Origin: Paraspadella gotoi
Lineage: Eukaryota; Animalia; Chaetognatha
Length of the DNA stretch: 49,298 nt
Direction: 5' to 3'
Assembly (NCBI GenBank): GCA_051294375.1
Contig: CM119267.1
Coordinates: 1,305,215-1,354,512, forward strand
Under the pieces are notes generated by a model that saw only the letters and a list, made by a program, of their open reading frames with translations, was not told the origin of the DNA and did no database searches. A program made the translations under genes and the position numbers. Shown here piece after piece: positions 8,463-49,298 of the stretch (position 1 is the stretch's first letter; each line of letters opens with the position of its first letter).

Positions 8463-9788
8463 TTAACATTTATACGGTTTTTCGTTGGAATGAGTTTTTT
8501 GATGAATTTTCAGATGGTACTTCCTAGAAAATAACTTTTGGCAAATTCCACATCCATATGATTTTTCTTTGGAATGCAAGAGTTGATGTTTTCTGAGATT
8601 TGAACTCGTGGAAAAACTTTTTTCACAAACATTACATTGAAAAGGTTGTTCATTTGTATGAATCCGACGATGCGTTGTCAAAATATAATTTCGTGCAAAA
8701 AACCTCTGACAAACTTCACATTTAAATAATTTTTCTTTTGTATGAGTGAGTTGATGTGTTTTTAAACTAGTTTTTTGCGTAAAGCGCTCTTCACATATTT
8801 TACATTCGTATGGTTTTTCTCCTGTGTGAGTTACTTGATGTATATTTAGATTTCCCTTCTGAGTAAAACTCTTCTGACAAATTTCACATGTGTACGGTTT
8901 TTCATTTGTGTGTGTGAGAAGATGCGCCTTAAGACCTGCAGTCTGTGAAAAGCATTTTTGACAGATCTCACATTTATACGGTTTCTCTTTTGTATGAGTT
9001 CGTTTATGAAGTTTAATGCAACTAAAATATGAAAAACTCTTTTGACAAATATCACATTTGTATTGTTTTTGTTTTGTATGTGTATTATAATGTGTTTTAA
9101 GATGCTGGGGGTTTAAATATGACTTCTCACAAATGTCACATTTATATAGTTTTTCCTTTGTGTGAATCTTCAAGTGATTTAACAGATATTCCCTTCGTGA
9201 AAAACATTTTTGACATATTTCACATTTGTACTGTTTCTCTTTTGTATGAATGTGATAATGTCTTTTTAACACATAGCTCCTTGAAAAACATTTTTGACAT
9301 ATTTCACATTGAAATTGTTTATCATTTGTGTGCGTCAAATAATGTTCTTTCAGATAAACTTTACGAGTAAATCTCTTCTGACATAAGTCGCATTCATTTC
9401 GTTTTTCTTTAACGTGAGTTTTAAGATGCGACTTTAGCTTTTCCTTCAAAGAAAAACATTTTCCACAAATTTGACATTCGTATGTTTTTTCTCTTGTCTG
9501 AGTTCGATCGAGGTAATTTGATGCTGATCTTATGGTTTCACATTGAGATGGATTTTTTTCTTTATGAGTTAAAGTATGTTTTTTTAAATGATGTTTCAGT
9601 GAAAAACATTTCGGACAAAATTCGCATTTAAATGTCTTATTCTTTGTTAGAGGATTTTCACTTAGAGAACTTTCGGTGAGACCAAAATCACTTGGACTTT
9701 TTTCATCTTCACAAAAGTCGGAGTCACGTGATGTTTCTTTTTCACAAATTGACGAATTGTGACTCAGTTGATCTTGGGTCTGTTTCAT
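8463..9788 (-). CDS. C2H2 (Kruppel-type) multi-zinc-finger protein
   Basis: 441-aa ORF with 13 intact CX2CX12HX3H fingers, one degenerate finger and HT(K/N/G)EKPY-type linkers. A possible acceptor just upstream of the ATG suggests an additional 5' exon. Confidence 0.95.
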   Translation of the reverse strand: MKQTQDQLSHNSSICEKETSRDSDFCEDEKSPSDFGLTESSLSENPLTKNKTFKCEFCPKCFSLKHHLKKHTLTHKEKNPSQCETIRSASNYLDRTQTREKTYECQICGKCFSLKEKLKSHLKTHVKEKRNECDLCQKRFTRKVYLKEHYLTHTNDKQFQCEICQKCFSRSYVLKRHYHIHTKEKQYKCEICQKCFSRREYLLNHLKIHTKEKLYKCDICEKSYLNPQHLKTHYNTHTKQKQYKCDICQKSFSYFSCIKLHKRTHTKEKPYKCEICQKCFSQTAGLKAHLLTHTNEKPYTCEICQKSFTQKGNLNIHQVTHTGEKPYECKICEERFTQKTSLKTHQLTHTKEKLFKCEVCQRFFARNYILTTHRRIHTNEQPFQCNVCEKSFSTSSNLRKHQLLHSKEKSYGCGICQKLFSRKYHLKIHQKTHSNEKPYKC

Positions 9789-10432
9789 ATCTTCGCTGAA
9801 TATGATATTAATTTTGGATGAATTCGATGAATTAGATGAATATGATAATAATTCTGATCTATTCAGACTAATTAGAGTTTTAAATGTTGATGTTAAAATG
9901 AAGAAGTTTTCGGATTTTATTTAAAAATAAAAACGAAGATTGTTATGCATGTTTTCTTTTCATCGCCTCTGTTATCTTGTTTTGTTTTTTCGCTTCTTTC
10001 GCCTTGTTTTGTTTTTATTCGCGTTTTATTATCAGCAAAAATATTTTAAAATGTGAATTCTAATATTTTATTTTAGACTTAAGAGAGAGAAAAGAAATCT
10101 TTGAATGAAATTTGATTCCGATTTGAATAAAAATGACTGAATGAAAATGTTTACGAAAAAATTATTATTATTTTCATTTTCCTTTTTTTTGTATTTTTAA
10201 AAAAATCATTTTAAGTCTAAGCATCCGAAGATTTTGTCTCAAAACTGAAAACAATTTATCAGTGAGATTCGTTGACCTTGTCGTCGTCATCGTCATCGTC
10301 GTTGTCATCGTCATCGTCGTCGTCATCGTCGTCATCATCGTCGTCGTTGTCATCGTCGTCGTCGTCGATCCCGTCCGTCGTCTCTTCACAGTTGTTTTTT
10401 TCTCGGATACAAATGGACATTAAATAAGAAGA

Positions 10433-16525: not shown

Positions 16526-18474
16526 CTTTTATTTTTAAAACTTATGATGAGGACCTGGTCAGTGAGATTATAAATTTGATTATAACAAAATGTTCTCATG
16601 TTTGGATAAATAAAGTCACTATCCTAATCGTTATTATATTAATTTAATTTCTGGATTAGTTTTTTGCACACCCGATTTAGTCGCCTAAGCCATTTATTTT
16701 GTTAATTTTTTTCACAAAATTTTCAAAAATGTTGATCTCATTTAAAAGAAATTTATGCATATATTCAATGACCAAAAATTTTGTGATACTTTGAAAAAAA
16801 AATCGCTTTGATCCCAAATCTTAATATCGAGATAAAAAAAAGAAATAAATTGGCCATATTTTCGGAAAGCGCCTAATTTTAGTGGATTTTTAGGTTTGAA
16901 GATAAGGATTATATAATGGATTTAACTATTGATGAGGTAATAAATTAAGGCTTAACGATTATGGTACAGAATTCGGGATCAGGAATAAATACTTGATAAA
17001 AAAATTAAGTTAAAATATCATTTAAATATCATTTAAATATCATTTAATCGATAAACCACAACAACAACAAAGCTAAAATTAAGGGATGAGGAACAGAAAT
17101 GGGTCGCTTTCGGATAATAGTGCCAAAATATCTATCGTTGTTTGATCTTTGTCTCTACCTCCGTTTTAAAGCTTTAGTTTTTTGAATTGTTTTAATTTTG
17201 AATCATGAATTGTTTTACAAAGCAGAATTTAAATCTGCATTACTCAATGGACGCTAAATAGCAATTACATATTTCAAGAGACTACACTAGCATTTTTAAT
17301 AAGTCTTAATCTCACTAACAAAATATCGCTGCTCCGCTGATTACATATTAAAAGCTTTAAAACTACAATCAAAATATCAGCTGCTTAGCCCTCGGATGTT
17401 TTACTGAAGAAAAGGTGAACATTTGTAAGACGTTTCATGGTTCGGAATGTCGTTTGGAATTTTTATTTGCTGTTAACATGACCCGTCGTGCTATTCTTTC
17501 TCTCTCTCTCTCCAAAAATAAAAAAAAGATAAAAAAAACAAACAAACAAACAAACAAAAACTTGTTTTTTATTTATATACTTTACTGTTAAGTCAGCAGA
17601 AAGAGTATTTGAATTTTGGTTGTAAATCACAGTTGACAACTTAACACAAATCACATTGTATTAAGAATCTTAAAACTAAATATAAAGCTTCGCAGCTTCC
17701 AGACAATATTTTTTTTCATATTATTTTTCATATCTTACCATTTTCATATAACGTTAAAGAACGTTTAAGGATCATTTTAACATTTTCATATAATTTTCAT
17801 CTCTGGTTAAAACTCTACAGAAAAAAAAGGTGCTAGATAGCGCCAAAATTATGCTAAAAATAGCTAGATTTTTTAACTATGCTAAATATTATGCCAAATT
17901 ATCTTATAGCTGATTTAATGCAAAACTGTTATGAGAGCATGGAGAAATTATTAATAGAGCCTATGAAAAATTATTTAGACAGATAAGAACAAAAAAATAC
18001 AAAAAATGAGACTTTTTGTTAACTGCAACGAGCCATATTTTTTAAACAGACCAACCAACCAACTGATGCCATCTAGTGTCTTGCATTTGTAAAGTTGTTT
18101 CAACGTGCTACTACTAGTGTTACAGAACTACACAAGCATCTCAGAGGAAAATCGCTAATAACTAAATACTTTGGCTTTATTGTATAAATGCTAGCAATCC
18201 GTTCCTGGTCTCAAATAATTGTAATGGGAATTAACATGATTGTTATCAAAGAAATAAATAATAAAATAAGCAAATAGCATAATTTATACAGATTGATGTT
18301 GCCAGAAGAAATGTTTTCATAGTTTTCACAGATTGTATGCTATATGCCAGATCAATTTTTTACTAGTCATAAATTATACCAGATCTGGCAATTTTTTTTT
18401 AATTAAAAAAAGTCGATTTTCATATAATTTGACCCAAAAATATTTTTGCGCTTCACGTATTTATCGTCATAAGT

Positions 18475-21400
18475 TCATAACACGACCCATGAGGACATCT
18501 CTGTAAAAAATGAGGAAGGGGAAAGCAGAAACAAAATGATGGCAAAATTAAAACATAAAATAACAAAAACAAATAAATAGATAAATATATAAGTAATTTT
18601 GACAAACTAAGAGAAAAACAGAAAATTTTTGTTTTGTCTTTGTTAAAACATTTTTTTACTACAATATGCAAATGAATTTAAAGGACTCTCTAACCTGTTT
18701 CTTCGCCAGCGAGCGACGCTGTTTGACCAATGACTGGAATCGAACGAATCGAATTTTCCCGGTCGTCGTCGTCATTCGTTGGCGTCGTCTCTCTCAGAGG
18801 AAGACGCAGCCTCGATTGACGCGGCGGTGGCGGTGGCGGCGGCGGCGGCGGCGTTAGCTGCCCCGTCGTGCAGGGTCGCAAGTCGGTAGCGTCGCAAAAC
18901 GAGGTTGTGGGCGTGGCGGGGCGCCGCGGCAAATGGCGATTGGCTGCGTCGTCTCTCAGATGATCGGCATTGCAGTAAATAGATGAGCATCCTACGTCGA
19001 CTTTGGAAGGGGGGAAGGCAGAATGTTTATGCGGATGAGGCGCAAGGTTTGCTGGTGACTACAATCCATATCTTCTGTGCCCCCTCAGCAGCTATGGAAC
19101 GGGTCCTGGGCTTGTAACCAGGCTTGAGGGTTTCCAAGCTCCCAAGGCCGTTTACGGCCGTCCTCAAGCTTCCCGCAGGGTAGGTATCATAGGGGATCAA
19201 TCCCGGTGCCTTTTGGTCATGAGCTTAAGGTATTACTCAATTGTCTCAGAAAAGTATCACCTAATTTATGCTTGATGCCTCATAACTTCATCAGTCACCC
19301 CCACTTTAGGATCCGCCACTTTAGGATCCGCCACTTTAGGATCCGCCAATACCAATTCAAATCTTACCTCTTGCATTCGGAGTCGACGAAGCTGATGCTA
19401 TAAATTGATCGTAGCCATACAAAAAGTTGGGGTTGCCAGTTTGGAACCCAACCTGTGGAGATTGAACGAAAGATCATTAAAACTTCCATTCAAATGCCGA
19501 TATCTCACTGTCAGTCTGTGTGAATGTGTCTCTATTTTTTCATATGGCCATCTTCCCTTCTGTCCCGTTCAGAGTTTAACTGTCTGTGTGAATGTTTGTC
19601 AGTCTTTATGACAGTCAATTTATCCATTTTGTCTTTCACGAACCTGTACAGGAAAGCCCCCGTAATGGTAAGGAACTGGAAAAGCGATGGGTGACGCCAT
19701 TGGCGATGCAAACGGTACCTGCGCCATCGACGAAGACATCGACGATGCAATCTGTGTTGCAAATGGCGCCTGCGCCATTGATGACGCCATGGGCGATGCA
19801 ATCTGCGTTGCAAATGGCGCCTGCGACATTGATGACGCCATGGGCGATGCAATCTGCGTTGCAAATTGTGCCTGCGCCATTGATGACGCCAACGCGGTGG
19901 ATCTTGCCATCGTTGGATGGGGATGAAGGCGGTTGTAAGTGTGAGAGGTTGCAGGTGGCGGCGATGGATGGTTGGGGTTAATTTGGTGAGCGTGGCAAGG
20001 GTAAGGCGACGCAAGCGGTGAAGGGGTGAGGCAAGGTGAAGCGTGAGGAAGATGAGTTGAACGTTGCTGCGGCTGCTGGTGCTGCTGCATGTGATGCTGT
20101 GGTGGCTGCATATGTTGCTGTGGCTGCAGTTGCATATGTTGCTGCGGTTCTTGCATCCATTGCGGTTTTTTGTGCTTGTGACGAGGACCAGGTTGCTGAT
20201 GGAAGAGAGATTGCTGGCTTGGATTCTGTGGTTGCAACTTATAATTGTTTCGATTGTATTGCAGTTGGTTGTGTTCGTGATGTCGTTGATGATGATGTTG
20301 TTGTTGTTGATGTCGTGGATGATGTTGTTCTCCCGTTGTCCGCCGATGGCGCTGAAGTCGCGGCGAAGTTGGCGTCGACGCGGACGTTGTGTCGGAAGAT
20401 TTGGAGGAGAGATCCAGCGGAGATTCTTCGAAAGGATCGTCGAGTGTAACCGAAAAACTAAAGTGGAGGAAAAGGAGAGAAAGAGAGAGAAAGAGAGAGA
20501 GAAATATTCACCTCAAGGAGTTAATACTATAATGTGCTCTGCAGTAGCATCAAAATACAGAGAGCAGACTAATTTAATATTGACTAATTAAAAAAAATGT
20601 TATGTAATTTAGCCAATTGATACTACAACCTAACATCGTTTACTGTCAGCTAATCATAAATGGTCATCATAAAATCTCACCAGGATGAACCGCGCTTCTA
20701 AAGGTCCAAGGTCTAAGGGCCCAAGTCCAAGGTTCAAGATACAATGTCTAAGGGCCCAAATCCAAGGTTCAAGATACAAGGTCTAGGGCCCAAGTCCAAG
20801 ATACAAGGTCTAGGGCCCAAGTCCAAGGTACAAGGTCTAAGGGCCCAAGACCAAGGTCCAAGATACAAGGTCCAAGTTCTAAGGGCCCAAGTCCAAGGTC
20901 CAAGATAAAAGGTCCAAGGTTCCCCCCTCCGAGTCCCCAAATCATTGGAGAACTTACCTTCTTTGTCTTGGACTTTGATAATAAGTGGATCTCTGTGACT
21001 CAAGGGGAGGCGCCATCTTGGGTCGAACAGATGAGAAGCAAACTGCGCGACGGAAATGATGATTAAATATTAAATAATCGTTGTTGTTAATTATTAACTA
21101 ATTAATTAATTATTAATTAATTGTTGTTCTTAAATTATCCAATTTATTAAACTGACCGTTTGATGTTCGCGGATGCGTCGATCTTGAAAAGTTCATTCGG
21201 GGATTTGGCTGAAAATATTAAACTTATATTTTGATGTTGGTTGTACCAAATTTCATTTATCAATATCGTCTTGATTCACTCCGACAGAACCCTGGCTGAA
21301 CTGGCACTGACTCACTCCGACTCACTATTCTCTACTCATTTCGACTAACATGGCCCCAAGAAGTTCTCCCGATGGCAGGGGGTACTGGGGCATTCTATAC

Positions 21401-24400
21401 GAAGGGGAGCTATATACTAGCCACAGAAGGAGTATCCCGACTCACCACTCACTCTGACCTACCTCCAACAAACTCTGATTCACTCCAACTTAACCTGAAT
21501 TATTCAGACTCACCCCGACTTACCCCTTAACCTGAATTATTCAGACTCACCCTGACTCGCTGGCAATAAAGTTGGACGTGACCCTTCTGTCCGCATGTCC
21601 AGCAGACGATGTCCGGACAGAAGGATTTCACGTGATCAAGTGATCCGCATTGAAAACAGAATCTGAGAAAAAGAAATGAGGAATTAGGAAAATAGACAAC
21701 ATATTGATAAACATTTAAACGAAAATAAAAATAATACAAAAGAAACACAAATAAACAACATATAAACATACAAACTTAACCAAAGGTCAAAAAAACCCAA
21801 CATCGGATAAAAATGAAAAAAATACAAAAAAATAAAACAACAAAATAAACAAAACTTGAAAAAAAATAGCAAAACAAAACAATTTCTGAAACAAAAAAAA
21901 AAAAAAACCAAAAAAACAGAGCACGAATTAAAACATAGCCAAATCCCTTAACCAATGATCTAACCAACGATCTAACCAATGACCTAACCTCATCGGAGCC
22001 GAAGAAGGTGTTTTCGCTTCGGATAAATTTTCTCTCGATTTTCGATGAGAAAAGTAAAAAGTTTTGGAATTATAAGAGTTGGAGGCTGAGGGAGAGAGAG
22101 GGAGAGGGGAGGAGGGAGAGAGAGGGAGTGGGGAGGAAGAGGAAGGGGAGGAGGAGGAGTAGGATGATTTAGTGGAATCTGGGGGGAAAATAAAATTCTT
22201 TGTTACTTTCTTTCTTTCCTTTTTCCCTTTCCACTTCACCTCTCTACTCCTCCTTCCTCCCCCTTTTCCTCTTTCCTCCCCCTCTTCCTCCTCCTCCCTC
22301 CGTCTTCCTCCCTCACCTCTTCGCTGGATAGGAAATGTTTCGAAAAGTCCCTGCGAAGTTTGACAGCTCACAGTTCGGCTTCTTTGTTCTGACCAAGAAA
22401 TTTGGGATAGGTTGATTTAATGAAATAACAATTTTAAATTGATTAAAATCAATTTTTAAATTCATATCTCTGCTTCCTAGAAAAGCCTACCTCTACCTAC
22501 CAATTTCTTGCGTAGTACTTCATTGACGACTTGCCGAATAGAACACCCACGGATGAACCCACCAAAGTATTGACTTATTTATCTATTGTCCTTTGTTAAA
22601 TGCCTCATCTCTCTCCCCCACCCAAGGTTCGACCTCACCTCAAAACCTTACCTCGCACGTCGCATTCCTCTTGCAGCTGCATGTGGATGTTCCTGATCAG
22701 ACTCTCCGTGTCCTGAGGGAGTCGGTAGTACTTGCATTCGGCGAGGAGAAAGTCCAGCCAACCGCCGATCTGCGGTGGAGAGAAGAGAGTCGCTCGTTGA
22801 GTGATCACTGATCACTGATCAGAATCGATCGAAAAATTCAAGAGGTTATGGCAACGGGAGGGGACATGTGTGTTGGGCGGCGTGAGAGGAATCTTTCGAG
22901 CGCTGGCGCTCAGGGATTTGGACCTGCAGTGACCACGCAATGTCGCTGGCGTTTTTATGCCGATACCATCAGGCTTTAACCAGCGTGACCGTGAGGGGAT
23001 TGAACTCGGAACTCACGGGTGGTGAACGAGTACATAGACGTCCAAGCCAATGGGACAAGCTGAGTTTCACTAAGCTATAAGGGAGGCGAATTTAGGATTC
23101 GCCACAAGGTCAATGATAGTTGTCAGTGTTACATCTTTTTTCATAAACTATCTTCAGGATTGTTCTATAAGTTTTCAATATCATCAATCCCACTACTTTT
23201 GCAGTCGCCTTTACCCTTACCCTTTCTCTTAACCTTACCCTTGGCTTCCAACCTTCTGCTCCACCATTGATTGGTACGATTCGTTTATTTAGGTGACGAG
23301 CGTATTCCAGTTCCGCTCGACAGTTCTTACTGTTTTCGTAGTCTTCGCTGTAGACAACCAGTATTATGCTGGATTCTGAGAATAAAAAGGGGACAAAATT
23401 AAATAAAAGAATTTAAGAAAAGTGATAGTTAATTGGTTCTTCATTGTAAGAAGCAGAAGAAAATGAAATTGCGATTGATCATACCGACGCTGATGCTTGA
23501 AAAAACAAAAATTTAAAAAAAAGTTAAAAGTTGAAGGAAAAATGATAGATTGAGTTTACCTTTAGCATTCCGCGATTGCCACATAACTAACCTGACACGG
23601 TCACACAACCGAAACTTTCTGCCCCGTCCACCCTGCCCCGTCTGCCCATTTACATACCTGCCATTTACATACATGCCATTACATACTGCCATTTACATAC
23701 ATGCCCATTACATACCTGCCATTTACATACATGCCCATTTACATACCTGCCATTTACATACATGCCCATTTAACCAATACTGATTTACATACCTGCCACC
23801 GCCTGACTCATCGCTTCGTTCATCTTTCCTTGCATTCTTTCAACGTCGACCCAAACAAGAATCCCTTCGGCTTTGAGTCGCTTAACCACGACGTCTTCGA
23901 CCAACTGTTTGCTCTGGGGAAAGGGACGTGGGAAATTGGCAGAGCGGTCGGGGTTGATCGTTCCAGAATTCACTCATCGAAATTGGGATAAAAATTATCT
24001 ATTTATTCAATTAGTCAGCTATTTTGTTTCTTAATTTTGACCAGCATTGGCGATTGAATACTTTGATCCATTTTACAAGATAATAACACAGCATGACCCT
24101 AAAAGCAATTAATCAAGTCTGACAGAGAATCTTTCTTCCTAACCATTGAAGTAAAAGGGCCACTCCTTACTATTTAATTAAGTAAAATAACATTAGTTAA
24201 TGAATTTCATAGTACATAGACTGTGAGAGAGTCTTGTAGCAATGTTTCTATCTTGTAACAGGGAAGGATGGCGTCACCGTCTCATATATGAGATAGGCGG
24301 ACCGAGGAAGGAGCAGGGCGTTAACCTGGAGGCCCTTTTTCAAAATATAACATTGTGTATGAGATAGGCGGACCGAGGAATGAGCAGGGCGTTAACCTGG

Positions 24401-24601
24401 AGGCCCTTTTTCAAAATATAACATTGTGCGGCGACTCCAATCATAGACATGAGACAACATAGTTATGGGCAATAAATAATGTTTAATGAAATTATTCAAT
24501 TTTATATTAGTTATATATCATAACTTGTTGACATGATTAAACATTAAACTTACCCCTTTCCAGGCGTAACTTATCATGACGTCGTATCGCCCTCTTGCCA
24601 T
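18475..24601 (-). CDS. TIR-domain (TIR_2-like) protein with two CCHC zinc knuckles and a Q/H-rich repeat region; 13 exons, ~718 aa
   Basis: Exons 24601-24554, 23913-23793, 23375-23239, 22769-22652, 22388-22317, 22178-21989, 21662-21551, 21208-21157, 21042-20958, 20457-19644, 19452-19368, 18991-18695 and 18500-18475 are all GT-AG and phase-consistent (2157 nt in total). TIR: YDVMISYAW...VWVDVERM...SEDYENSKNCRAELEYA...IVPI...GWL. Knuckles: CFQCGSLDHVKSFC and CWTCGQKGHVQLYC. Confidence 0.8.
19069..19248 (-). mobile_element. Structured module, family 2 copy A (intronic, same strand as the TIR gene)
   Basis: Collinear with 26742-26922. Contains hairpin GGCCG-TAAA-CGGCC, GGG..GCTTG-GAAACCCT-CAAGC and CCTGG-TTACAAGC-CCAGG. 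Confidence 0.65.
20700..20920. repeat. Intronic minisatellite built from CCAAGGT / AGATACAAGGT / AAGGGCC units
   Basis: Directly visible mosaic tandem repeat. Confidence 0.85.
22870..23056 (-). mobile_element. tRNA-derived SINE-like element
   Basis: Starts GTCCC, with A-box-like TGGCTTGGACG and B-box GAGTTCAATCCC. Tail GGTCC...GCCAGCGCTCGAAAGATTC resembles that of 26523-26702. Confidence 0.5.
23644..23797 (-). repeat. 14-15-bp minisatellite reiterating the TIR exon 2 donor (GGCAG|GTATGTAAAT)
   Basis: About ten units of ggca(g/t)gtatgtaaat; the first unit is the real exon-intron junction at 23793/23792. Confidence 0.85.
24287..24428. repeat. 71-bp tandem duplication in TIR intron 1
   Basis: 24287-24357 and 24358-24428 differ at one position. 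Confidence 0.9.
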
Positions 24602-25323
24602 GATTTCGTTCACGAATGAAAATCACAAATTTCACTGGACAGTCAAGCTTGAATTTTGCCTTTTCGTTTTTACGCGATGAGGGTTTAGAACTGAGGACCG
24701 ATGAGGTTTACGACTTCTGTGATCCCTGAAAATAAGTAAATAGATCAGTGAAAATGTGTCACAAAGCCAGGGAACCGGCATTAAAAATCTCACAATGCTA
24801 TTGGGCAAACTAAGTGTGGGAACTGTCCACACTTAGTGAACACCCTTAATCCACACTTAGAGTGCATGTCGACCGCCTCTCCTCTCTGTCATTCTATATT
24901 TTTTTATTATTTATTATCGTTAAAATATCTTTTTTTTTAAATCCTTTTCTTTTATTAATAACAAAGCGTTTTTTAATTCATGTGTATAACCTTCCAGGTT
25001 TATAAAAAAAATTCAATTTGTTTAATTCAGTATTGAGTTTAATAGTTAATATTTTTAAGGCAAAAGAGAAATCGCAAACGATGACTAGTACATAATGCGA
25101 TATTTTTAAAAAAGTATTTTTATTAATATTGCCTTTGAATCGATTCGATTTAATACATTTTTCGACGGGGAAAACCCGCGGAAGAGGGAAATCCCATGTT
25201 TGTTTTTGTTTCGTTATTTATAAAAAAACAACTTTATTCAGATTATATTTAAAACTCGAACCGATACCGCAGTGGTGACCGCATATTGGAGTTGATTTAC
25301 AAAAGTGATGAGGGAGAAACTGC

Positions 25324-25371
<48 letters not shown>

Positions 25372-25954
25372 CAAATCCGAGTACTAGTAAATTAATCAAT
25401 TAAATCAATTAATGGATGCATTGTTGTTATTTTATCATTTTCGATGCAAAAATATCAAAAACTCATTAATTTTTCAACTTTTCTATTTTTAATCAATTTT
25501 AAAATTTTCCAATTTGTTTTTATTTTTTTGAATATTATTCTTTTTCGGACGATATAGTATTTTAAATATTTTTTAAATTGTTTTCCATTTAGGACTTTTC
25601 CATTTTCGATATTTTTTATTTTAGTTCTTTTTTATTTTTGATAGAAAGACAGACAGATCGACGGAAAAGTATTCGAGGCGCAACTGAAAGCTTAATTTTG
25701 TAAATACGTGAAGTTATCTCTTCTCACCGCGGACCCGTGTCCATTTTCGGGTCCGCTAGAGGGAACCCGCACGCCAATCCCGAATGGGAGGGGAGGAAGG
25801 TCGGACGAGGACATGTCCGGACATGATCAGTTTGATCACGTGATCACTTTTGAGTTATTGACTTCTCTTGCGAAATTGTGATCACAAAAAGTAGAAGGAT
25901 ATTTGGTGACCCGCATTTTAAGGAAGGAGGTGAATGACGCTGGGATCCTGTGGG

Positions 25955-25988
<34 letters not shown>

Positions 25989-26522
25989 AATGATGATGAC
26001 GATGACCTAGTCGAATGCTAGTCTCCGCTGGCGTAAAAGGAAAAATCCTTTTCGCAATAATGATGATGACGATTATGAAGACGCTAATGATAATTAAGAC
26101 ATTGACTATGATATTGATAATGATAACAATAACGATGACGAGATGAAGATGATGGTGATGAGGATTGTAATTATAAGAGAACTTAATATTATTTTTTATT
26201 ATTTATTTATTTATTTATTTATATACATATATACATTCATTTTTTATTTTCTCATATATATTCATTTACGTATTCATTTTCTCAATCGAATTTAACTTTT
26301 ATTTTTGCAGATATTTTTCCAAATTCCGACGAAGCAGAAAATTTCACCGACGGAGAAGGAAAACCAATCAAGGCAACCAATAAAATCAATCAAAAATAAA
26401 TCAATTAATAACAAATAAATCGGCAATTTATCACAAATAAAACGAGAAAAACTATAGACAAGACGTCTGATAGGAGAACCCGTGACACACTAAATATAAA
26501 CGCCTTAACTCCGCCAAATCAC

Positions 26523-26702
26523 GTCCCGACCAAATGGCTGAGCGGGCTTAATGCTTTTGACTCAACCGTGCGTCCCGGGTTCAAATCCCCCGGGGAAACC
26601 CCGATTCTCATTGAAAGGGAATCGGTTTAAGAAAGCGAATGAGAAAGGTTCACTCAGGGTCCGCAGCTAACAAGCCAGCTTCGGAGATTCTCCGCGACAC
26701 CG
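26523..26702 (+). mobile_element. tRNA-derived SINE-like element
   Basis: A box TGGCTGAGCGG (26535) and B box GGTTCAAATCC (26578) at tRNA-like spacing; no complete cloverleaf; unrelated 3' body. Confidence 0.6.
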
Positions 26703-26741
26703 AAATAACCTAATACTATAAAGTAAAATCAATCTTTGTTG

Positions 26742-26922
26742 TATCTTCTGCGCCCACTCGGCTGCAATGGAACGGGTCCTGGGCTTGGAACCATGCTGGA
26801 GGGTTTTCCACGCCCCCTAAGGCAGTTTACGGCCAACATTATGCTTCCCGCAGGGTTGGTACCTTTGGGGATAGATCCCGGTACCTGATGGTCAAGTCCG
26901 AAGGCGGGGCAAACTTGTCGCA
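26742..26922 (-). mobile_element. Structured module, family 2 copy B
   Basis: Shares ATGGAACGGGTCCTGGGCTTG, GTTTACGGCC, GCTTCCCGCAGGGT and ATCCCGGT (plus strand) with 19069-19248, in the same order. Confidence 0.65.
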
Positions 26923-26963
26923 ATGCCCAAATTCAATGTCTAATCAAATCCTTTATAATCTAA

Positions 26964-27084
<121 letters not shown>

Positions 27085-28233
27085 TGATAATAATCCTCCG
27101 TCCAACCAAAGATTCTCGGTCGCCTTCCGCTGGATCCTCTCGTCAGCGGCTGCAGCGAGAAAGGCAGCAGCATTCTGCAGGAGCATCCGGAGAGCGGCGC
27201 CGCGGGACGCGTTTTGGATTTGGTCGACGCAGTCGTCGCTACTTGGGGATGAGATCTTTTCGAGGGGATACAGGGAGAGGCGGGTAAAACGATCGTTCTT
27301 GTCGTGTCTTAGTGTATTTCAATCAAAAGGGCCAGAAGAAAAGAGAATTCAGAGAGAGAGAAGAGAGAAGAGAGAAGAGAGAGACAGAACTGACCTGTGT
27401 TAAATCATTAGTCCATTACACATTACCTCTTCTATTTTCAATCGTCGTTTTTAATTTTGAATTTTTAAACAAATTGTTTTGACGCTCGTGGCGGCCGACG
27501 CGTGCGTTCCCGGGCGGAATGAAAGTTCGACGTCCGCATAGTCACCGGCGGACGATATCGCGATCGAGACGGCCCAAATAATAGGGAAAAGTTTTACAAC
27601 TGATTCAGTCGCGAAGAAAAGGGGGAAAAAGGGGGACAATTGGTATCCGTCTTATTTTTAACTTTAGCAATGTTTTAGAGAGAGAAAGTCGTTGCCTCTA
27701 GAACGTTCAACGTTTTTAACTCGCCGTTGGGGTTTATTTTTAATTGATTTTATACTCACGTTTTTATATTTTTAACCTCGAAATTAAGAATTAATTTCAC
27801 ACATTGTTTGTTGATAAATAAACTCGCCAACCTGTTCCAAAAACTGAACGTTATTTAAATAAGAACTAAAGTCAGCCAACGTGATCGAAACTACAGAGGC
27901 ACAAACACAAATTATATTTGATTGCTAATAATAAATCAAGCTTTAAAAAAAGCCACAGCTAGACAGTTGAATACTAGTTTAATAGTTTCGTAAGTAAACC
28001 CTAAGTTAACCCTTGTGTAAGTAACTAAGTTGTACAGAGTTCATATTTCGAAAACTTGTTTTATGTTTTTTTCTTTTGGCGCAAGGACTATCCTTATAAT
28101 TTTGAATCAGTCTCGCCACCTATAGAGTAAATCTCGTGCTACATCGCTGCTCTTTTGTCAGTCAGAAACAAAGGGTTTTGTCTGAGTCGCCAGAAAATAA
28201 AAAGAAAGAATTCATGTAGAAATTTACTGCCTG

Positions 28234-30216: not shown

Positions 30217-32525
30217 ATGATGCAAGAATCGACGGAGGAGGAAGAGCGACTTCCCGCCAAGGAATTCATCTCCCTTGCCGACAAAGATGACAAAGAAGAC
30301 GACAAAGAAGACGACAAAGTAGACGTCGAGGCCGACACCTCCGTCGCTACCCTCATCCCCAAGACCGACGGAGTCGTCGTCAACAAACAAACGAGTGAGA
30401 CAGAGATGGAAAGAGAGAGAGATAGAGAGAGAGGAATAAAAATGGGAAAGTAAAAAAATAAAACGTAAATTTTTATTAAAAAACAAAATAATTTTTTAAT
30501 ATAATGCTATATAAAATGCTAGTTAAAAAATTGTTTACCTATTGGTTTTTTAGTATTATAATTTATATTATGAAATTGGTACAACCAATATAAATATATT
30601 ACATTATATACCATTTTATCTCGTTGTTCGTTTGTTCCCAGCGGTTTACTCTCACGGCGACATGACCGCGCCGCCTCTCAGTCAGTGAGGAAAACAATCC
30701 GGATAAAGAAGGAAAACAAAAGGCCTCTCCTTTTGCAAAGTTCTTTCATTACAAAAACAGAGCGGATGAGGTTTAGTAAAAACCATTATTTTTTATTATT
30801 CTTTACATCACGACAACTTAAAAAAAAAAAAAATTTATGGTACGATAACCTCCATAAGTTTTGTTAGGCGACTTTCAAGATAATAACATAGCTTGAGTCG
30901 AGAATCTCCCTCATTAGTTTATTAATTCCCGCAATGAATTTTTCTTTCTCTCTCCCTCTCCCCCCCTCTCTCTCTCTTCCTCTCTCCCCCCCCTCTCTCT
31001 CTCTCTCTCTCTCTAGATGCTCTCCCGAAGAGGGTGTTACATGTCCAACATTCTGTCGCTCTTCATTCCTCTCTTGATGGTCATTTTCGGCGTCGTGTTT
31101 GTCTCCAACTGCGAAATTCAACCAATGATTCCAATTTATCTCATCGTCGGTGGAATCTTTTCCGCTTTGGAAGTTTTATATCGGATCGGGAGGTGAGCGG
31201 GGAAAGACTTTAAGGGGATGGACTTGAGGAGTGAGCAGGGAAAGACCTTAGAGGAAGGACTGTGGAGGTGAGCGGGGAAAGACTTTAAGGGGATGGACTT
31301 GTGAGGTGAGCGGGGAAAGACCTTAAGGGGATGAACGTGGAGGTGAGCGGGGAAAGACCTTAAAGGGATGGACTGTGGAGTGAGCGGGGAAAGACCTTAA
31401 AGGGATGGACTGAGGAGTGAGCAGGGAAAGACCTTAAGGGGATGGACTGTGGAGGGAGCGGGGAAAGACTTAAGGGGATGGACTGTGGAGGTGAGCGGGG
31501 AAAGACCTTAAGGGGATGGACTGAGGAGGTGAGCAGCGGGAGACCTTAAGGGGATGGACTGTGGAGGTGAGCGGGGAAAGACCTTAAGGGATGGACTGTG
31601 GAGGTGAGCGGGGAAAGACCTTAAGGGGATGGACTGTGGAGTGAGCGGGGAAAGACCTTAAGGGGACGGACTGTGGAGGTGAGCGGGGAAAGACCTTAAA
31701 GGGATGGACTGTGGAGGTGAGTGGGGAAAGACTTAAGGGGATGGACTGAGGGAGGTGAGCAGGGAAAGACCTTAAGGGGATGGACTGTGGAGGTAAGCGG
31801 GGGAAGACTTTAAGGGGATGGACTGTGGAGGTGAGCGAGAAAGACCTTAAAGGGATGGCTGTGGAGGTGAGCGGGGAAAGACCTTAAGGGGATGGACTGT
31901 GGAGGTGAGCGGGATTGACTGTGGATTGAAGACTGTGGACTGGAACGATGGACTGGGGACTATGGACTTGGGATTATGACTGGGGGCAATTGACTGGAAA
32001 CTATTAATTGGGGAACGATGAACAGTGGATTAGTCGGTCTTGGGCTTTAAGCCTTAGTTCCTAAGAAGTAAGCAGTAAAAATTATTAAGGTCTATGTATT
32101 AGTCAGTAAGGACAATGTACAACTGATAAGGGTTAAGGGCTTAAGACTAACGACTAATAACAAAGGCTTAAGAATCAACGTTTAGTGATCACCAAAAGTT
32201 TTTTCTAATTATCTCCCTACATAAAAATTAACGATATTCAATATTATATTGAACTCAACGTTTATCCGTCATGATTTTTTAAGTTGAATTTGATTCCCGA
32301 TTTTCAAATTTCGAAATATTTTCTTCTTTTTTTTTCAGAAATTTGTTGGAACATTTCGAAGTCGTCTTTTCGATTTCGAGAAAAAAGAGGAGATGTACGA
32401 GCGTCGTACGGATCCTTAATGGATGTTTTTCTCATCGTTTGGTACGTGAAAATACGTACGGTTATTATGAAGGGTCGTTTAATGATGATACGAATCAAAG
32501 AGGGATAAGTTATAAAAAGTAAAAT

Positions 32526-47830: not shown

Positions 47831-49298
47831 AGTGAGGAAAACAATCCGGATAAAGAAGGAAAACAAAAGGCCTCTCCTTTTGCAAAGTTCTTTCATTACA
47901 AAAACAGAGCGGATGAGGTTAGTAAAAACCATTATTTTTTATTATCTTTACATCACGACAACTTAAAAAAAAAAAAAAATTATTGGTACGATAACCTCCA
48001 TAAGTTTTGTTAGGCGACTTTCAAGATAATAACATAGCTGGATCGAGAATCTCCCTCATTAGTTTATTAATTCCCGCAATGAATTTTTTCTTTCCTCTCT
48101 CCCTCTCCCCCCCCTCTCTCTCTCTTCTCTCTCTCTCTCTCTCTCTCTAGATGCTCTCCCGAAGAGGGTGTTACATGTCCAACATTCTGTCGCTCTTCAT
48201 TCCTCTCTTGATGGTCATTTTCGGCGTCGTGTTTGTCTCCAACTGCGAAATTCAACCAATGATTCCAATTTATCTCATCGTCGGTGGAATCTTTTCCGCT
48301 TTGGAAGTTTTATATCGGATCGGGAGGTGAGCGGGGAAAGACCTTAAGGGGATGCGACTGAGGACAGTTGAGCAGGAAAGACCTTAGAGGATGGACTGTG
48401 GAGGTGAGCGGGGAAAGACTTTAAGGGGATGGACTGTGTGAGGTCGAGGCGGGGAAAGACCTTAAGGGGATGAACGGTGGAGGTGAGCGGGGAAAGACCT
48501 TAAAGGGATGGACTGTGGAGGTGAGCGGGGAAAGACCTTAAAGGGATGGACTGAGGAGTGAGCAGGGAAAGACCTTAAGGGGATGGACTGTGGAGGGAGC
48601 GGGGAAAGACTTAAGGGGATGGACTGTGGAGGTGAGCGGGGAAAGACCTTAAGGGGATGGACTGAGGAGGTGAGCAGCGGGAGACCTTAAGGGGATGGAC
48701 TGTGGAGGTGAGCGGGGAAAGACCTTAAGGGATGGACTGTGGAGGTGAGCGGGGAAAGACCTTAAGGGGATGGACTGTGGAGTGAGCGGGGAAAGACCTT
48801 AAGGGGACGGACTGTGGAGGTGAGCGGGAAAGACCTTAAAGGGATGGACTGTGGAGGTGAGTGGGGAAAGACTTAAGGGGATGGACTGAGGGAGGTGAGC
48901 AGGAAAGACCTTAAGGGGATGGACTGTGGAGGTAAGCGGGGGAAGACTTTAAGGGGATGGACTGTGGAGGTGAGCGAGGAAAGACCTTAAAGGGATGGCT
49001 GTGGAGGTGAGCGGGGAAAGACCTTAAGGGGATAGGACTCGTGGAGGTGACGAGGATTTTGACTGTGGATTGAAGACTGTGGACTGGGAACGATGGACTG
49101 GGGACTATGGACTTGGGATTATGGACTGGGGGCAATTGACTGGAACAATTAATTGGGGACGATGAACAGTGGATTAGTCGGTCTTGGGCTTTAAGCCTTA
49201 GTCCTAAGAAGTAAGCAGTAAAAATTATATGTCTATGTATTAGTCAGTAAGAACAATATACAACTGATAAGGGTTAAGGGCTTAAGACTAACGACTAA
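47730..49298 (+). repeat. Near-identical second copy of 30659-32157 (TMEM272-like exons 2-3 plus the 38-bp array)
   Basis: Collinear throughout, including the order of minisatellite unit variants; differences are mostly small indels. Confidence 0.93.

Follow-up and report, generated by a model that had tools for sequence, protein, structure and literature searches.

A candidate chaetognath gene that would join a TIR domain to tandem CCHC zinc knuckles

A thirteen-exon gene model in Paraspadella gotoi

We analysed a 49,298-nucleotide (nt) stretch of the chaetognath Paraspadella gotoi (assembly GCA_051294375.1, contig CM119267.1, positions 1,305,215 to 1,354,512; hereafter the window), which carries on its minus strand, at 24601-18475, a predicted gene whose product would join a TIR domain to two CX2CX4HX4C zinc knuckles. 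Rebuilding the model from its coordinates gave 13 exons separated by introns of 114-640 nt, 12 of 12 of which are GT-AG, and the joined exons form a single open frame whose sole stop lies at 18477-18475. The encoded order is a TIR domain (amino acids (aa) 1-141), a serine/proline (S/P)-rich linker, the two knuckles and a region rich in glutamine, histidine and proline (Q/H/P). A preliminary description of this stretch, made from its letters, had proposed this order and the joining of 13 GT-AG exons without phase conflict into about 718 aa, and both were reproduced. The length depends on the acceptor of exon 12, with 19051 giving 738 aa, 19000 giving 721 aa and 18991 giving 718 aa, and the full span is 687-738 aa when the alternative in-frame acceptors of exons 6 and 12 are both included. 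An in-frame stop lies seven codons 5' of the ATG, and the TIR domain would therefore be N-terminal. An acceptor-like site at about 24728 on the minus strand, 127 nt 5' of the start codon, may, judged by eye, mark an untranslated 5' exon or a site of trans-splicing. No paralogue of the gene was found within the window. The parts of the model are as follows.

24554..24601, minus strand: coding portion of exon 1 (aa 1-16), with the start codon and strand A of the TIR domain; the relative P0012 (see below) begins at the same place
23793..23913, minus strand: exon 2 (aa 17-56); TIR helix A, strand B and BB loop; TIR_2 E 0.063
23239..23375, minus strand: exon 3 (aa 57-102); TIR strands C and D and, between them, helix C, which carries Glu78; TIR_2 E 1.8e-5
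22652..22769, minus strand: exon 4 (aa 103-141), which completes the TIR domain
22317..22388, minus strand: exon 5, a 24-codon linker exon that could be skipped in frame
22086..22316, minus strand: intron 5, long form; its purine-rich 5' half pairs with its pyrimidine-rich 3' half, and it contains the nearer acceptor 22178
21989..22178, minus strand: exon 6, linker rich in S/P, beginning at 22178 or, with the frame kept, at 22085
21551..21662, minus strand: exon 7, 112 nt, two CX2CX4HX4C knuckles with a 4-residue spacer; zf-CCHC E 1e-6; phase 2 to 0
21157..21208, minus strand: exon 8, short and basic, with weaker splice sites
20958..21042, minus strand: exon 9, placed by splice sites and frame
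19644..20457, minus strand: exon 10, Q/H/P-rich low complexity with a 17-residue (51-nt) unit present about three times
19368..19452, minus strand: exon 11, placed by splice sites and frame
18695..19051, minus strand: exon 12, proline-rich; in-frame acceptors 19051, 19000 and 18991 tested
18475..18500, minus strand: coding portion of exon 13, including the stop; an ATTAAA lies at 18403

The TIR domain, the zinc knuckles and their pairing

Exons 1-4 tile one complete TIR domain in alignment with full TIR proteins, and these exons are therefore set by homology. The nearest relative, P0012, which comes from a 668-nt ENA contig, shares 56% identity over 107 aa (residues 1-107) and runs colinear with the model through the exon 1-2 and exon 2-3 joins. 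In P0012 and in a further relative, P0006, similarity is lost on reaching the exon-3 donor, and each protein has a Val there, a pattern that would fit translation running on into an intron at this position; the contigs of both end before downstream exons could appear. Exons 2 and 3 align with consecutive segments of the TIR_2 profile (PF13676) at 14.2 and 25.7 bits, scores that come from single exons and not from the joined domain and that each fall below the 28-bit cut-off, and P0012 scores 56.6 bits, so that the profile search recommended in the preliminary description came out in favour of TIR_2. The best look-alikes of exon 3 are likewise TIR_2 clusters. An exon-3 search of 1.84 billion representatives returned 95 matches, the best of which, after P0012 and P0006, are invertebrate proteins at 33-39% identity (Mytilus, Amphiura, Dimorphilus and Hydractinia); among 18 relatives scanned, the partners of the TIR domain are ARM-like, NACHT, ankyrin or tandem TIR. 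Exons 6, 7, 10 and 12, those beyond the TIR domain with at least 30 codons each, gave no match to ARM or SAM.

In a tree of the top 40 of 108 proteins, several of them redundant and none taken from the published TIR atlas, the model groups with P0012 and P0006 with support 98/92, and the backbone is open. Atlas rows that share these TIR motifs belong mostly to clade 10 (ARM-TIR-SAM) or clade 11 in the accessible part of supplement 1 of PMC13142454. These shared motifs, and not the tree placement, suggest a TIR_2 domain of the eukaryotic clade-10/11 type. The comparison with SARM1 made earlier does not hold as kinship, as the nearest matches are non-SARM1 TIR_2 proteins of a widespread, uncharacterised invertebrate and protist group, the members of which usually bear ARM and SAM domains. 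Superposition on the SARM1 TIR, also proposed earlier, supports a TIR fold in P0012, which was folded as a stand-in for the present protein: its predicted structure, with a predicted local distance difference test (pLDDT) score of 74.7, matched TIR structures at Z 12-15.7, including the SARM1 TIR at Z 14.5 with a root-mean-square deviation of 1.6 over 102 residues. Many TIR structures tie with this model, and it therefore shows the fold and not the subfamily. Exons 2 and 3, compared singly with the PDB, gave chance matches only.

The earlier proposal that a glutamate occupies the catalytic helix position is upheld. In alignment, the Glu of the family profile falls on Glu86 of Roq1 and on its counterparts in RPS4 and Cat1, and ROQ1 E86A is listed among catalytic mutants in the accessible text of 10.64898/2026.02.03.703613. 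The residue here is Glu78, the first of the two Glu in SKNCRAELEYA; it is kept in 37 of 40 relatives, compared with 18 of 40 for Glu80. Ser11, Asp39, Cys75 and Glu78 are each kept in 35-39 of the 40.

The knuckles (aa 231-244 and 249-262) are the only two CX2CX4HX4C motifs in the six frames of the window. Exon 7 matches zf-CCHC (PF00098) in two stretches at 29 bits (cut-off, 20.8 bits; E 1e-6), and the best solved match of the knuckles is yeast AIR2 (E 7.2e-6), which has the same 4-residue linker, followed by retroviral nucleocapsids. All eight metal ligands and both aromatics are intact, Phe and Trp following the first Cys of the respective knuckles as in the HIV-1 nucleocapsid. Aromatics of the nucleocapsid type at this position stack on bases. 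The knuckles, described beforehand as CCHC motifs that bind single-stranded nucleic acid, are thus two, intact and of the RNA-binding type, and by analogy they are predicted to bind single-stranded RNA. Exon-7 look-alikes in a sequence atlas all scored below 0.9. Retroelement Gag was considered as the identity of this segment and rejected: the knuckle exon is flanked by introns, and exons 6, 10 and 12 gave no match to Gag capsid or reverse transcriptase. Beyond the knuckles, composition runs from Q/H/P-rich through alanine/serine/methionine-rich to proline-rich, with 32 Gln, 28 Pro and 26 His among the 188 residues of aa 313-500, and exon 10 has no Pfam match. This composition suggests that the tail may be disordered and may condense.

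No relative with both domains was found in the searches that we ran, in keeping with the earlier remark that the architecture was not recognised from characterised proteins. CX2CX4HX4C occurred in none of the 95 matches of the exon-3 search. Three further searches are weak negatives: one with the TIR alignment gave five matches from 2013 candidates, none with PF00098; an exon-3 search for longer proteins gave one candidate and no matches; and a search for homologues of the knuckle exon gave no candidates. In JGI metagenomes the exon-1 motif had no match, and none of 193 pattern matches was confirmed. The terms "CCHC", "PF00098" and "knuckle" were not found in five supplements of PMC13142454 (cells to 400 characters, with one PDF outside the search), the 4,322-row TIR table of which, in its accessible part, does name other zinc-finger families. 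No TIR-CCHC protein was found in the literature searched, a scope that excludes InterPro architectures and the supplements of 10.64898/2026.04.20.719644, and no such case was found in the accessible text of the surveys PMC7075850, PMC5094078 and PMC2575513. TIR_2 is heavily shuffled, and a new partner in one genome is therefore to be expected occasionally; what distinguishes this pairing is a partner of a recognisable nucleic-acid-binding type.

Continuity of the exon chain

The join between the TIR exons and the knuckle exon is likely, judged from splice sites and frame in a single genome. Strong donors are strand-biased, with 27 of 331 GT dinucleotides on the minus strand compared with 6 of 325 on the plus strand, and the exon-4 donor has the top score, 263 nt separating exon 4 from the next exon. 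Between this donor and the knuckle acceptor, five paths through strong sites keep the knuckle frame when the true phase is used, compared with one and two for the false phases; the five span exon 5 in or out, intron 5 retained, and either acceptor of exon 6. Skipping exon 7 destroys the frame. The route count from exon 4 to exon 7 is favourable, not decisive, and the false-phase test covered exon 4 through exon 10. A figure of 0.5% for exons 5-12 all being open was discarded as a p-value, since the acceptors had been picked with the frame in view; the false-phase test is fairer. Synonymous bias among the copies of the exon-10 repeat tilts towards the model frame (4:6, compared with 2:8 and 0:8); with only seven variable columns, it was not used.

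The linker of the preliminary description calls for a correction. An S/P-rich stretch is indeed present in frame, and the frame is kept with either exon-6 acceptor; however, the second acceptor, at 22085, has 17 of 17 pyrimidines, is stronger than 22178 and lies 93 nt inside the S/P-rich start of exon 6, leaving 31 S/P-rich codons on its 5' side. The sequence from the exon-5 donor to 22085 folds back on itself over its whole length, with an energy of -134.6 kcal/mol and an 8-nt perfect complement between its two ends, beside the GT and AG. For each of three block sizes, none of 150 block shuffles reached this energy (mean values near -110); the shuffles preserved local composition and not run structure. 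This fold joins the donor with the far acceptor and buries the near one, and the 31 codons, much of the supposed linker, may therefore belong to a fold-back intron. A microRNA at the purine/pyrimidine tract was considered and rejected; an Rfam search over 17500-27500 gave 17 matches, 16 of them on the tract and all below gathering score.

Several introns contain repeats. A high-copy dispersed repeat occupies about 22900-23110 in intron 3, is covered by many run contigs 90-99% alike, and has a B-box-like word that suggests by eye a tRNA-derived short interspersed element; there is no Rfam match. Intron 11 holds a 150-nt element at 19069-19219, also with no Rfam match, of which an 82% identical copy lies 7.7 kb off in the same orientation (26742-26894). 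Tandem repeats lie in introns 1, 2, 9 and 11 (24287-24428, 23643-23798, 20707-20919 and 19301-19348, respectively), and within the intron-2 array the donor-like word CAGGTATGT occurs three further times. Elsewhere in the window, 30684-32157 and 47831-49298 are 96% identical direct copies of 1.5 kb that hold a tandem array of ~38-nt units. A C2H2 zinc-finger array of at least 10 fingers lies in one frame of 485 codons on the minus strand (8463-9920), the only clear neighbour in a Pfam scan of 12 other long frames; 168-818 on the plus strand resembles by eye the final exon of a class B G-protein-coupled receptor gene, with no Pfam match at E 0.01.

Possible activity and comparison with known systems

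We propose that the locus encodes a soluble protein from one gene, with an N-terminal TIR domain, tandem knuckles and a Q/H-rich tail. The knuckles would hold single-stranded RNA, RNA binding and the tail would crowd many copies together, and the crowded TIR domains would assemble and so switch on NAD+ cleavage, the likeliest product being a cyclic ADP-ribose (cADPR) signal; knuckles and tail would replace the ARM and SAM domains usual in close TIR relatives as sensor and clustering device. Available accounts of related enzymes point the same way: TIR enzymes require self-association (PMC7282519), condensation activates plant TIRs and worm TIR-1 (PMC10972746; PMC8923663), and in an E. coli screen active non-TLR animal TIRs mostly yielded cADPR, most active TIRs making it without draining NAD+ (10.64898/2026.04.20.719644). 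That the exons form one gene and one transcript is probable; that RNA-bound, tail-aided clustering activates NAD+ cleavage by the TIR domain is a tentative proposal by analogy, which we rate somewhat short of even. A role in immunity or transposon defence, as raised in the preliminary description, would be borrowed from related families. It is improbable, if conceivable, that the protein is a single-chain cytosolic sensor-enzyme of animals, binding viral or retroelement RNA, condensing through its tail and making a cADPR alarm or draining NAD+.

Several observations weigh against these proposals, and some of them favour two genes, or a dominant short isoform, at the locus. Read-through of exon 4 meets a stop at 22637-22635, within six codons, which would give a 146-aa TIR-only protein, and an ATTAAA follows 3' of this stop at 22421; an in-frame ATG closes exon 6, two codons ahead of the first knuckle Cys, and from this ATG a separate knuckle and low-complexity gene could begin. 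TIR-only proteins are common in invertebrates, according to the accessible text of PMC5094078. False phases also reach the knuckle exon, by one or two routes. Between exon 7 and exon 10 they do about as well as the true phase, which makes the frame uninformative there and the exact tail exons less sure. Contigs of one run, compared with 22311-23400 (exons 3-5), bridged no junction: they covered the intron-3 repeat alone (7 of 30 bins) and no exon, with one joint, within the repeat, a result uninformative either way. However, the top-scoring donor closes exon 4, acceptors precede exons 5 and 6, just 263 nt would have to fit both a poly(A) site and a promoter, and all five strong-site routes preserve the frame, so we regard two genes as unlikely. 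Since no relative with both domains was found, the fusion rests on one genome. Within one gene, the knuckles may be a recently captured Gag-like exon, serving as a decoy or protein-binding module as do the integrated domains of plant NLRs, or part of a young fusion of unsettled function. The knuckles do resemble retroviral nucleocapsid, and no orthologue was found in the searches run; in the accessible sources, zf-CCHC_4 is an integrated domain in plant NLRs (PMC4759884) and TIR_2 had 362 architectures by a 2016 count (PMC5094078). Yet the metal ligands and aromatics are all intact, exon 7 is neatly bordered by strong splice sites and needed for the frame, and Gag and reverse transcriptase went unmatched in the exons scanned, which makes capture or a young fusion distinctly unlikely.

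Other points bear on catalysis and on the TIR domain itself. In the accessible text of 10.64898/2026.04.20.719644, activity in E. coli is recorded for 12 of 61 animal TIRs that carry the Glu, the other 49 giving no product, and IL-1R9, IL-1R10 and TLR2 retain the Glu yet are inactive, so the Glu by itself predicts NAD+ hydrolase (NADase) activity weakly. The atlas (PMC13142454), in its accessible text, describes clades 10-13 as uncharacterised, with SARM1 in a distinct clade 8, and the folded structure represents P0012, 56% identical and without the exon-4 part, and not the protein itself. The 49 TIRs without product would also suit a one-gene protein whose TIR domain is a non-enzymatic scaffold, the knuckles and tail siting it on RNA granules where it recruits other TIR proteins. 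Animal TIRs are classically adaptors, and ZCCHC3 is described as tying RNA sensing to TIR adaptor recruitment without catalysis (PMC7232131). Against a scaffold, the four conserved residues are kept in 35-39 of 40 relatives, and the screen, which used isolated TIRs in E. coli without an activator, probably undercounts; a scaffold is, in our judgement, unlikely though worth keeping in view.

If the enzyme proposal is correct, cytosolic RNA recognition would be linked to cADPR signalling in animals; as a single-chain RNA sensor-enzyme, the protein would give an uncharacterised TIR clade its first member with a defined ligand. According to the accessible text of PMC13142454, clades 10-13 occur commonly among non-model animals and protists, and none of their proteins has been characterised; on our reading of the available part of 10.64898/2026.04.20.719644 the activator of catalytic animal TIRs beyond SARM1 is an open question; a TIR member with a built-in ligand-binding module makes RNA-triggered NAD+ chemistry directly testable. 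If the join is wrong, the locus holds an ordinary orphan TIR beside an ordinary knuckle protein.

The closest known proteins over the TIR domain are those of clades 10 and 11 (for example Mytilus XP_052098462 and Amphiura XP_072024411), which share the same motifs over the whole TIR, with 33-39% identity for the nearest members, together with the conserved Glu. In contrast to the ARM-TIR-SAM proteins of these clades, the predicted protein has its TIR domain N-terminal, no ARM, SAM or NACHT domain, and tandem CCHC knuckles with a Q/H tail, features absent from all 95 matches of the exon-3 search. SARM1 and C. elegans TIR-1 share the TIR fold (stand-in Z 14.5), the catalytic-position Glu and, likely, switching by assembly, but SARM1, of clade 8, places ARM-SAM-SAM before a C-terminal TIR, differs in domain order and matches the profile weakly (E 1.4e-4). 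Tandem CX2CX4HX4C knuckles are common to AIR2, retroviral nucleocapsid and ZCCHC3, and AIR2 shares the 4-residue linker; to our knowledge, a TIR domain is absent from all three. ZCCHC3 has roles in antiviral signalling and in restricting LINE-1, and it aids TIR proteins in trans. TEP1, as described in the available part of 10.64898/2026.05.01.722283, is an animal DUF4062 TIR-like NADase of the RNA vault, an RNA-associated particle; it belongs to another TIR-like family, is a large multi-domain protein, and its DUF4062 is unmatched here. In bacteria, the TIR NADases SPARTA (TIR-APAZ with short Argonaute) and Cat1 (TIR-CARF), as far as the accessible sources describe them, convert a nucleic-acid or nucleotide signal into oligomerisation, and among solved structures Cat1 gives the family profile its best sequence match (E 6.2e-10). 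Unlike them, the P. gotoi model is an intron-bearing animal gene with no Argonaute, APAZ or CARF, and its proposed sensor would be sequence-tolerant knuckles instead of a guide or second messenger; if it is indeed an RNA sensor-enzyme, it would represent a guide-free animal counterpart of bacterial SPARTA.

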